Shown: positions 17,201-18,683 of the stretch, piece by piece
How positions within the stretch are numbered: the stretch's first letter is position 1
Layout: each line of letters begins with the position of its first letter
Origin: Promethearchaeota archaeon
GTDB taxonomy: Archaea > Asgardarchaeota > Hermodarchaeia > Hermodarchaeales > Hermodarchaeaceae
NCBI GenBank assembly: GCA_048938295.1
Contig: JBHLMI010000015.1
Span: forward strand, 1-32,000
Length of the DNA stretch: 32,000 nt
Direction of reading: 5' to 3'
Program-made: the position numbers and the translations under genes
The notes under the pieces: model-generated
Databases searched by the model: none
Seen by the model: the letters and a program-made list of their open reading frames with translations, nothing else
What the model was told of the DNA's origin: nothing

Positions 17201-18683
17201 TCCGTGCTCGAAAACCTGCAGGAAACGGGTCGTGAAGACTATTGAGTTCCTGGTATGCTGCAATCGTATTAAGAAGACCAGCCCCTTCAATGTTCGGTTC
17301 ACTCGTGATAGGTAAGGCTCCACGCCGCATACCAATGGAAAGGGCTTGTGGCGTGGCGAATTTCATTGCCTCGAGGAGAAGGCATGCCGCTCCTGTAGTA
17401 ATTGCCGCTGAGGCGGCAGTGGTACTCGCCTTTGTGTAGTTCTCATTAATCGGAGAACCAAAAATTCCGCCTCCTATAAACTCGATATCTCCCAAGTCAA
17501 TGTCAATGGATATATTACCAATATCGGTTGGGAAGATCTTATACAGAGAAGAGGAGATGATGTCAACTCCAGGAGCAATGAGATCCGGTTTAGTACGAAA
17601 ATCAAAAGTGGGGCCTCGACTGCTGAATTCAGGGACTAGGCCTTTTAGCGTATCATAAGCACCTACGGTAAGTGCCGCTAAGGATTCTCCTGGCGACATG
17701 ATAGTTAGGTGGTTGGGTCCCTGATCACCAGCAGCCGCAATGACGAGAACTCCTTCTTCTGCAGCTCTCCACACCGCCTGTGAGAGCGGGTCACCTGGCA
17801 TTCCTAAGGTTGAGAAAGGCATTAAGATGATATCTGCACCATTGGTCACACTCCATTCGATTCCTCGGATAATCCAAGAGGAAAACCCAGTACCATCGCC
17901 AAGAATGACCTTAGCACTGATGAGTTGGGCACCGGGTGCGATGCCAACATAAGTACCATTTGAAGCCGCTCCAGTTCCTGCCACTAGCCCAGCACAATAA
18001 GTACCATGACCGTTCAGGTCAAATGGGAACGGATCTCCCTCAGTGAATGAGACTTGGGCAACCACTTTGGGATCATTAGTGGTTTCGTTATCATCCATAT
18101 CATCAAGATCTGGATGAGTAATATCAATGCCCGTATCCAAGATTGAAACAACGGTGTGTGATCCATTAAGACCCAAATCGTATAGTGGCTTTGCGCTAAT
18201 GGTTTCATTGGGATGAAGGTAACCATTTGGAGAAAGTGGATTCGATGAGAAACTAGTTGCCGATGTATCTAGATGAAACCCATGGTCTGTCCAAAGTTTT
18301 TTAATCTGTACGATACCCGCGAGTGCCTCGAGTTCACCTATTCTAGTTCGTAAGGAAATCGCGTGGATTAACCGATGATAGGTCAGAATTTGGGTTAATG
18401 TCGTTTTTTGCAAGATGGCCCGTTTTGCTGATCTCCAATCAGTCCTTTCTACTAAGCTAGCAATCACATTTACAGGAAGATTAGGATCTACATCGGACGA
18501 GATTAGTTCAATGAGTCCTTGTGATAGCTTGGAGTCTGGATTCGCTGTATCAGAAGAAGGGATTAGGAAACCAACTGAAAGCTGATACGCAGAAAACAGC
18601 ATAGCCATAATGAAGATGGAAAGTAAAATGAGACTTCGTAATGAGGTGCCATCTACGTTATTTAGCTGTTTCATGCGTTGCAC
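14292..18683 (-). CDS. Type I membrane protein, 1463 aa: I9-like prodomain + S8 subtilase domain with catalytic Ser->Ala (predicted pseudoprotease) + beta-sandwich/CARDB-like domains + GIFT (GldG/IFT52)-like domain + TM + cytoplasmic helical tail
   Basis: D183 (VSILDTGID) and H226 (DLNGHGTYCAG) are intact, and 'FSSRGP...KPDLIAPG' is present. The nucleophile motif reads STTAASAAITTG instead of SGTSMATPHVAG, and the oxyanion motif reads AAGDQG instead of AAGN.G. 'VILFDSTHNQ...FDGLVICDP..GFSVNETNAISEFIESG...ELFVLGCSAIFGN...DNLRFV' is GIFT-like. More than 30 N-x-S/T sequons counted by eye. TM at ~14530-14605. Confidence 0.85.
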   Translation of the reverse strand: MQRMKQLNNVDGTSLRSLILLSIFIMAMLFSAYQLSVGFLIPSSDTANPDSKLSQGLIELISSDVDPNLPVNVIASLVERTDWRSAKRAILQKTTLTQILTYHRLIHAISLRTRIGELEALAGIVQIKKLWTDHGFHLDTSATSFSSNPLSPNGYLHPNETISAKPLYDLGLNGSHTVVSILDTGIDITHPDLDDMDDNETTNDPKVVAQVSFTEGDPFPFDLNGHGTYCAGLVAGTGAASNGTYVGIAPGAQLISAKVILGDGTGFSSWIIRGIEWSVTNGADIILMPFSTLGMPGDPLSQAVWRAAEEGVLVIAAAGDQGPNHLTIMSPGESLAALTVGAYDTLKGLVPEFSSRGPTFDFRTKPDLIAPGVDIISSSLYKIFPTDIGNISIDIDLGDIEFIGGGIFGSPINENYTKASTTAASAAITTGAACLLLEAMKFATPQALSIGMRRGALPITSEPNIEGAGLLNTIAAYQELNSLHDPFPAGFRARSIGLGFPYYGILVSESSSENVTLLMSGYSTAIGALVTSSVTNMTLFHLLFGMFYLAVGNSSPTPFSFLNVEQEMHWTGLPYGEYVRATGILSYDEVLIIPRIESWQIATGPSVNAFRISFFFVNIGSETVTDIRVYSLWNFDLFSGANDTSTQQGYFNDTSQLFHIQRDVLPVNESTRVEQFIGINASTPFSDFQVGPYDEVSDQLQNETLNGTTSYASDESIGFGSQWRLGNLSAGTSSLNVSMTLGFGLNFTALIHGINQTELATVAVPLTDLCMIQVDMARTGITNSTYLTSIIVCNIGDVGVDSLAAFFTNRSQPLGGAVFARYFQLGIFEPFQYQRLSVEWNPEVTEIYFAGWVVSPSIDFDLIIPFIPQDRYPLDNLVYRDVFISSPPMMRMLVPSHVPYTPMTLQFPNDYALYNLTLHTTTHIPSLAIAIEPFINSLIDSPIDRNVTQWENPPTISPEVITDVGIGTQFQITIFIPTFLESGPYYGNLVLRATDEWELTLPFVINVTYPQAVILFDSTHNQGIDFTDLEDLDLSNLDYNELLALFAELGDSLLTGYSRLRELFAASQLNLVDIPLINEINSTILQLFDGLVICDPEKGFSVNETNAISEFIESGYKTIILVDRPDSSNQTAVNQLLLNQSIQVGGTVTSYNTTELHPSTPFTSGVHAISTIDGTLLTTTGTAQTFAWVNGSAFGAYLGGTDKELFVLGCSAIFGNAYLPDLDNLRFVNQTIHYLFRKTVTMTIHITGGVNSSFYIGNDAGFVIDVVNATGQGVEGLDMFVIFVHPNRTQSFFIAFEVKEGRYGSFLLANWTGLDETIDTIQTFSIIVFTTPGAYCSTSAFIYFYYLPPPEEPSPPPEPDFLIIMTIQILLVTVITILIIGTYFMNQHRRKRQMRTPTLDEQIIRNIDNTLNTTQALIREMEWTLTDRRTDRIEKLRITSGEPANRLENMLKRLRELAKETGV

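Follow-up and report, generated by a model that had tools for sequence, protein, structure and literature searches.

Loss of catalytic activity in proteases of the subtilase (S8) family is already on record. The S8 pseudoproteases CspC and CspA of Clostridioides difficile keep their prodomains and act as sensors, and CspA homologues with a nominal catalytic triad are yet inactive (PMC7200643). Here, we describe an S8 gene from a 32,000-nucleotide stretch of DNA, henceforth termed the window, of a Promethearchaeota archaeon (Asgardarchaeota; Hermodarchaeia; NCBI GenBank assembly GCA_048938295.1, contig JBHLMI010000015.1, positions 1 to 32,000 of the forward strand). Its product is a large surface protein with two predicted membrane anchors, in which the S8 domain has lost the nucleophilic Ser and the oxyanion-hole Asn and is followed by a GIFT domain; the gene lies in an operon with ABC-2 transporter genes. 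As in CspC and CspA, catalytic residues of a subtilase fold are substituted in a way that orthologues conserve, the prodomain (here predicted) cannot be processed by the protein itself, and occasional homologues have a nominal triad. A non-proteolytic sensor or regulator role, which has been demonstrated for the Csp proteins, would be a further likeness. The Csp proteins, however, are soluble bacterial spore proteins of about 550 amino acids without GIFT domain, membrane anchors or ABC operon, and their substitutions are different ones, namely Thr and Gly in CspC. In neither CspC nor CspA could activity be regained. The Asgard family therefore differs from the known S8 pseudoproteases in architecture, membrane topology, phylum and genomic context. 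A paper describing it was not found in the literature, and its members are named “S8 family serine peptidase” in databases.

Three further systems resemble parts of this protein. Site-1 protease (S1P; MBTPS1/SKI-1; structures 8UW8 and 9CSD) has the same order of prodomain, S8 domain, beta domain, GIFT domain, transmembrane helix and basic cytoplasmic tail. S1P is an active, autoprocessing enzyme (D218/H249/S414, N338), whereas the Asgard protein is without the Ser and the Asn and contains about 550 extra beta-sandwich residues, an N-terminal membrane helix and an ABC-2 operon context. GldG, of the GldA/GldF/GldG system, likewise places a large GIFT-type domain outside the cytoplasm, flanked by membrane helices at the N- and C-terminus, and is encoded beside an ABC-2 permease and one or more ABC ATPases; both the flanking helices and this neighbourhood are found for the window protein. 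To our knowledge, GldG has no protease-like head, and the Asgard operon differs in encoding two distinct ATPases, of which one is extended at its N-terminus by a long segment. Tk-SP of Thermococcus kodakarensis, an active secreted protease, is the nearest solved S8 structure among the matches listed (E 1e-48), and is also close by fold including the propeptide. By sequence, the Asgard S8 domain lies nearer to Tk-SP and the subtilisins than to S1P, and neither S1P nor any Csp structure is among the 60 PDB sequence matches listed of 166.

The gene is an uninterrupted minus-strand open reading frame of 1463 codons (4.4 kb). A word-indexed search with residues 130–520 as query returned more than 100 full-length homologues of 1250–1490 amino acids, which are proteins from metagenome-assembled genomes (MAGs) named Thor-, Hermod-, Hod-, Prometh-/Loki-, Hel-, Jord-, Frey- and Ranarchaeia. 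Longer proteins of 1500–1780 amino acids from Loki and Prometh MAGs, which form a second tier, were obtained when 1.84 billion representatives were searched exhaustively with HMMER. All S8 domains were aligned to one hidden Markov model, and key columns were tallied for 135 domains of the catalytically dead family and 213 canonical domains from the same searches. The gene and its key codons, with these tallies, are:

14292..18683, minus strand: whole gene, encoding the 1463-amino-acid, doubly membrane-anchored surface protein with a dead S8 head and a GIFT module
18135..18137, minus strand: Asp183 codon, catalytic Asp position, retained; family D128 of 135, canonical D213 of 213
18006..18008, minus strand: His226 codon, catalytic His position, retained here; family H105 of 135 (then R13, S9, P2, E2 and others), canonical H213 of 213
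17724..17726, minus strand: Asp320 codon, oxyanion-hole Asn position, now Asp; family D128, N6, E1, canonical N208 of 213
17415..17417, minus strand: Ala423 codon GCC, nucleophile Ser position; family A75, T30, G16, S9, L2, F2, D1, canonical S213 of 213

The plus strand reads GGC at 17415–17417, making codon 423 GCC (Ala), and ATC at 17724–17726, making codon 320 GAT (Asp). In the protein, the corresponding motifs are DTG at 183, HGT at 226, AAGD with Asp320 and YTKASTTAAS with Ala423. Pfam Peptidase_S8 (PF00082) matches residues 174–449 (E 1.9e-43, 149 bits), and the HMMER alignment to Tk-SP (3afg/9ues) runs without gaps over the nucleophile stretch, with YTKASTTAASAAITTG above YTAAPGTAMATPHVAG, placing Ala423 on the nucleophile position; Ala stands opposite Ala there, hence, because 3afg and 9ues are engineered Ser-to-Ala mutants of Tk-SP. 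This register is also supported by structure prediction, since the helix bearing the nucleophile at its N-terminus in subtilisins starts at residue 422 in each of two independent AlphaFold models. The neighbours of the nucleophile in the GTSMAxP motif are replaced by T421, A424 and A427, at positions where the canonical domains have Gly in 213/213, Met in 196/213 and Pro in 204/213. Thus, of the features of an active subtilase, the fold and Pfam match, the Asp and the His are present, and the Ser of GTSxAxP and the oxyanion Asn are absent. The initial annotation, made from the sequence of the window, had placed Ala423 at the nucleophile and Asp320 at the oxyanion position, with loss of the flanking Gly, Met and Pro in an unbroken frame that keeps Asp183 and His226. 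The codons, the AAGD motif, the gap-free Tk-SP alignment and the 213 canonical domains bear out this assignment in every part.

The substitutions extend across the family, as the GTSMAxP motif is missing in all 135 Asgard homologues. With Ser at the nucleophile column in every canonical domain and in only 9 of the 135 family members, Ala423 is more than a chance replacement. Ala, Thr, Ser, Gly and even Leu or Phe exchange freely at this column, which says that selection at position 423 favours a small or neutral residue and not a nucleophile. Family-wide, the Gly, Met and Pro of GTSMAxP are replaced by T/S/G, A and A, respectively, and Tyr, Phe or Trp takes the place of the second His in HGTH. 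The longer proteins of the second tier (P0129–P0152, P0158, P0169, P0173 and P0184) show some peculiarities of their own: the catalytic His is also gone (Arg, Ser, Glu, Ile, Asp or Thr), at the nucleophile position one mostly finds Gly, Thr, Ser or Ala, often as part of an SGTGAAAA motif, and some members keep Asn at the oxyanion position.

S8-domain trees were computed with the trait columns removed. In a FastTree phylogeny of 244 domains, all 135 degenerate domains lie on one side of a single branch with support 100, and the sole other state change is an ordinary GTSMA enzyme with Asp at the oxyanion position. The same branch splits off the dead domains, represented by 25 diverse rows, in an IQ-TREE analysis of 109 diverse rows (Shimodaira–Hasegawa-like approximate likelihood ratio test 99). 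Catalytic loss thus fits one old event, as judged from these trees. The sister group of the dead clade among active subtilases was not recovered in the S8-domain tree, where deep-branch support ranges from 2 to 84. One hypothesis is that an active Asgard S8-GIFT gene was duplicated and one copy then lost its catalytic residues.

Selection on the gene was assessed by the ratio of nonsynonymous to synonymous substitution rates (dN/dS) against the gene of the nearest relative (locus L009; dS 0.34–0.55). The ratio is 0.072 for the S8 domain and 0.11 for the whole gene (dS 0.34–0.46 for these two), 0.14 for the GIFT region and 0.061 for residues 1301–1463, so that the dead domain is under strong purifying selection and the region of the C-terminal tail is constrained to the same degree. 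When the columns of the family alignment are compared along the protein, residues 201–350, within the S8 region, are the most conserved. An S8 pseudoprotease is marked by substitutions that are conserved among orthologues together with purifying selection, and both are found here. The proposal in the initial annotation of a maintained pseudoenzyme, as opposed to a decaying gene, is upheld by substitutions common to 135 homologues, their placement behind a single branch and the strong purifying selection.

Outside the active-site region, the protein is organized as follows:

18561..18644, minus strand: N-terminal hydrophobic helix (signal anchor), residues 14–41; hydropathy peak, predicted helix 12–40
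18273..18539, minus strand: predicted I9-like prodomain, residues 49–137; beta-alpha-beta-beta-alpha-beta unit in the AlphaFold2 (AF2) model, Foldseek match to 3afg
17259..18191, minus strand: subtilase-fold domain, catalytically degenerate, residues 165–475; supported by PF00082, VIA-align and the dN/dS given above
15624..17258, minus strand: beta-sandwich domains, residues 476–1020; all-beta in the AF2 model, with no Pfam or PDB sequence match
14784..15623, minus strand: GIFT / ABC_transp_aux-like alpha/beta domain, residues about 1021–1300; weak PF09822 and PF23355 matches, family profile
14523..14609, minus strand: C-terminal transmembrane helix, residues 1359–1387, after a Pro-rich stalk; hydropathy
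14295..14522, minus strand: conserved basic helical cytoplasmic tail, residues 1388–1463 (76 residues); family-wide motif

The protein contains 36 N-x-S/T sequons, compared with about 13 expected from its composition, and 35 of them lie between the two membrane helices. The tail motif is found family-wide and consists of a basic cluster followed by MR-x-P-E-L-D, I-D-N-T-L-N and a terminal Gly (alignment A6). An AlphaFold model of residues 1–520 (predicted local distance difference test score, pLDDT, 85; predicted template modelling score, pTM, 0.84) joins an I9-like prodomain to the S8 domain, and its best Foldseek matches are unprocessed pro-subtilisins, with ProN-Tk-SP (3afg) on top over 447 columns including the propeptide. 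The S8 domain itself superposes on subtilisins and Tk-SP in VIA-align with Z 41–47 and a root-mean-square deviation (rmsd) of 1.5–2 Å over about 270 residues. Pfam Inhibitor_I9 does not match within residues 1–180 and the prodomain call comes from the predicted fold only; from this model, a retained prodomain is plausible. A second model, of residues 150–1345 (pLDDT 88.2, pTM 0.88), begins with the S8 domain, continues with several beta-sandwiches and an alpha/beta domain (about 1026–1239), and ends in a further beta-sandwich. A PDB sequence search with residues 480–1340 alone gave no match. A profile built from the non-S8 part of the family, by contrast with this single-sequence search, finds the GIFT domain of IFT52 at E 1.2e-13 and that of human S1P at E 1.6e-4. 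Pfam MBTPS1_4th (PF23090) matches the Hel orthologues at 36–44 bits versus a cut-off of 27, and the window protein has no match to it at E up to 0.1.

The S1P likeness is most apparent at the level of the whole predicted ectodomain, for which human S1P (9csd_A) is the top Foldseek match. VIA-align superposes 591 residues, placing S1P residues 190–874 (8uw8_A) on model residues 6–1090 with rmsd 4.8 Å and Z 41.4; in the other structural matches listed, 350 residues or fewer are aligned. The S8 and GIFT domains are therefore predicted to pack as in S1P. In S1P, loops at the S8–GIFT interface hold the oxyanion Asn338 (PMC11231238), and Asp320 of the Asgard protein is thus, by analogy, a candidate interface or cation-binding residue.

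A second Asgard family pairs S8 and GIFT domains in a protein of about 1250 amino acids with a C-terminal zinc ribbon (Odin, Hel, Loki, Prometh and Atabey MAGs). Its members comprise L007:7001-10717 and P0259–P0312, with P0114, P0201, P0257 and P0272 as examples from Odin, Hel, Loki and Prometh MAGs. Asp, His, Asn and Ser are intact in 58/58 members examined, so that, within one phylum, one S8-GIFT family strictly retains the catalytic set and the other has lost it. The two families also share weak ABC_transp_aux or MBTPS1_4th matches, and one examined locus of the intact family adjoins an ABC ATPase. They differ in that the GIFT domain of the intact family follows within about 150 residues of the S8 domain and the cytoplasmic end is a zinc ribbon. 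The S8 tree did not recover this family as sister of the dead family. The source genome appears to lack a zinc-ribbon-type gene, because only two S8 genes were found in it (91.6% complete), namely the pseudoprotease gene and a neighbour at 5533–10551.

The pseudoprotease gene is the third of four tightly packed genes, following an ABC-2 permease and a 554-amino-acid ATPase and preceding a 331-amino-acid ATPase:

20361..21482, minus strand: ABC-2 permease, first operon gene (PF12698, 1.4e-25); adjoins the pseudoprotease homologue in L003, L004, L005, L006, L009 and L010
18690..20354, minus strand: 554-amino-acid ABC ATPase with an N-terminal extension of about 250 amino acids (PF00005); directly upstream of the homologue in five loci
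13300..14295, minus strand: 331-amino-acid ABC ATPase (PF00005); its start overlaps the pseudoprotease stop by 4 bp

The operon is conserved in Hermod/Prometh, Thor, Loki and Hel loci (the window and six related loci). The four-gene order also occurs in a Prometh locus and a Thor locus and, in a divergent arrangement, in a Loki locus. The permease is the immediate upstream neighbour of the homologue in a Hel locus as well, where an ABC ATPase gene of the opposite strand borders its 3' end. The 331-amino-acid ATPase is kept downstream in L003, L004 and L009 and lies nearby in L006. Of the two nearest relatives examined, one has a contig with all four genes, and the contig of the other stops just past the pseudoprotease gene. 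Of 400 genomes of the phylum, 122 contain the non-S8 part of the protein; almost every genome has it in some families (16/18, 5/5, 6/6 and 79/89), and in others it was rare or not found with this query (0/31 and 4/135).

Together, we consider it likely that the protein is a maintained pseudoprotease that serves as the non-cutting, membrane-distal head of a GldG-like ABC-2 accessory subunit. In this view, the nucleophilic Ser and the oxyanion Asn disappeared, along with the rest of GTSMAxP, before the Asgard lineages carrying the gene diverged, and purifying selection has kept the dead domain since. The domain would form the outermost part of a presumably glycosylated surface protein with two membrane anchors, whose beta-sandwiches, GIFT domain, C-terminal helix and conserved tail resemble a GldG-type accessory subunit. 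Instead of cutting, the head may act as a binding, scaffold or latch module, for instance in a substrate-trapping or receptor role. As the protein cannot remove its prodomain by itself without the Ser, the prodomain probably stays attached, perhaps as in CspC. Through the two membrane helices and the tail, the state of the head could be coupled to ATP-driven movements of the ABC-2 transporter.

Several observations weigh against this proposal. The window protein stays below the Pfam cut-offs for its GIFT-like domain (PF09822 at 21–23 bits, cut-off 34.7; PF23355 at 17–21 bits, cut-off 27.2), and a physical association with the transporter is suggested by synteny. Ser occupies the nucleophile column in nine of the 135 members, seven of which also keep Asp and His, and some of these lineages might retain residual activity. 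Asp183, His226 and, above all, Asp320 are conserved beyond the obvious need of a purely structural role, which could be a pointer to chemistry or ligand binding. The last two points would suit a protein that is still a hydrolase by non-canonical means, using either water activated by His226 and Asp320 or Thr422, Ser420 or Ser425 as nucleophile. Sedolisins have Asp at the oxyanion-hole position; moreover, Asp183, His226 and Asp320 remain in 128, 105 and 128 of 135 members, Thr422 in 126, and 30 members carry Thr at the nucleophile column. That column also tolerates Ala, Gly, Leu and Phe, however, the His is replaced in 30 members (by Arg, Ser, Pro, Glu and others) and Asp183 in seven, and there is therefore no catalytic set common to the family. 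Ser420 corresponds to the Ser before GTS in active enzymes (S186/213) and is variable in the family (S59/D56/N11/T9), and Ser425 corresponds to the A/S position after Met222 (family S79/A56); neither is conserved, and the positions that they match in active enzymes are not that of the nucleophile. An earlier caveat that one of these two residues could stand in for the missing nucleophile is thereby largely answered by the 135 homologous sequences. Thr422 is the Thr of GTS, and we know of no subtilase in which this residue acts as nucleophile. Furthermore, the substrate-binding strand, SLGG in subtilisin, contains a three-residue insertion with a conserved Pro-Phe in the family. Since the nucleophile column is variable and His or Asp is lost in more than 30 members, residual or non-serine hydrolytic activity appears unlikely from these columns, and we regard a non-canonical hydrolase as highly improbable as an account of the family.

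The initial annotation also suggested a substrate-trapping or receptor domain that is possibly still capped by its prodomain or processed in trans by the neighbouring S8 protease (5533–10551). In the latter case, the protein would be a zymogen-like precursor, and removal of its prodomain by the neighbour would unmask a receptor or substrate-trapping cleft. A prodomain is indeed predicted, and the neighbour, a plus-strand gene for 1672 amino acids, has an intact catalytic set (D205, H437, N596 and S691), is the sole other S8 gene of the genome and lies close to the operon in the two closest relatives examined (L003 and L009). Beyond close relatives, however, the pairing is not conserved, and the examined loci of Thor, Loki and Hel contain the operon but not the neighbour. 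The Hel orthologues, in addition, seem to have no prodomain, as their S8 domain starts at residues 73–77, and in the only S8 pseudoproteases studied the prodomain stays attached (PMC7200643). The suggestion is thus unsupported, and we consider processing in trans to be quite improbable. We reject the possibility that the gene is a pseudogene in decay or that the substitutions stem from faulty sequencing or assembly of this metagenome-derived genome; the chance that either explains the data is negligible. The frame is intact over 4.4 kb, the same substitutions recur in more than 130 independent assemblies, and dN/dS is 0.07–0.11. Over this stretch, contigs of the likely source sample (depth 15.5) show no difference. 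A strain variant present at low depth in another sample of the same study has seven differences, of which five are synonymous; among these are the changes at codon 423 (GCC to GCA) and codon 226 (CAT to CAC), so that Ala423 and His226 are kept. These data exclude an assembly error at the substituted positions.

The non-cutting head of an ABC-2 accessory subunit can be extended to a broader scenario, which we find doubtful as a whole. Here, the dead head would be the outside sensor or latch of an Asgard-specific, ATP-driven ABC-2 surface machine, the S8-GIFT architecture, in its dead and active Asgard forms, would be the prokaryotic origin of S1P in eukaryotes and perhaps also of the IFT52 GIFT module, and Asp320, the mostly retained His226 and the small residue at 423 would make up a repurposed ligand or cation site.

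Counts of extracellular proteases have been used to argue for protein-degrading lifestyles of Asgard archaea. Because databases name the present family “S8 family serine peptidase”, such counts are inflated by proteins that almost certainly do not cut. The family offers a clean natural case of a pseudoenzyme, in which the loss fits a single old event and the dead domain is, by column conservation, the most constrained part of a 1463-amino-acid protein, and the catalytically intact S8-GIFT family of the same phylum provides a comparison for it. The conserved ABC-2 operon defines a concrete four-gene unit. Finally, the S1P-like architecture and the GIFT domain shared with IFT52 bear on the question of which eukaryotic membrane-trafficking and processing parts Asgard archaea already had.

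Some features of the surrounding genes are worth recording. Between its Asp and its His, the neighbouring S8 protease has about 230 inserted residues, and a PPC domain lies near its C-terminus; a relationship to tripeptidyl peptidase II was considered and is not claimed, as a PDB sequence search gave only a weak Tk-SP match. The N-terminal extension of the 554-amino-acid ATPase shows faint TrmB-like Pfam matches and is kept in the Prometh, Thor and Loki operons (alignment A5). The next gene after the operon encodes a 174-amino-acid Ras/Rab-like small GTPase (12658–13182, minus strand) and is followed by a class I/II aminotransferase gene; this pair is also found downstream of the operon in L003 and L009.

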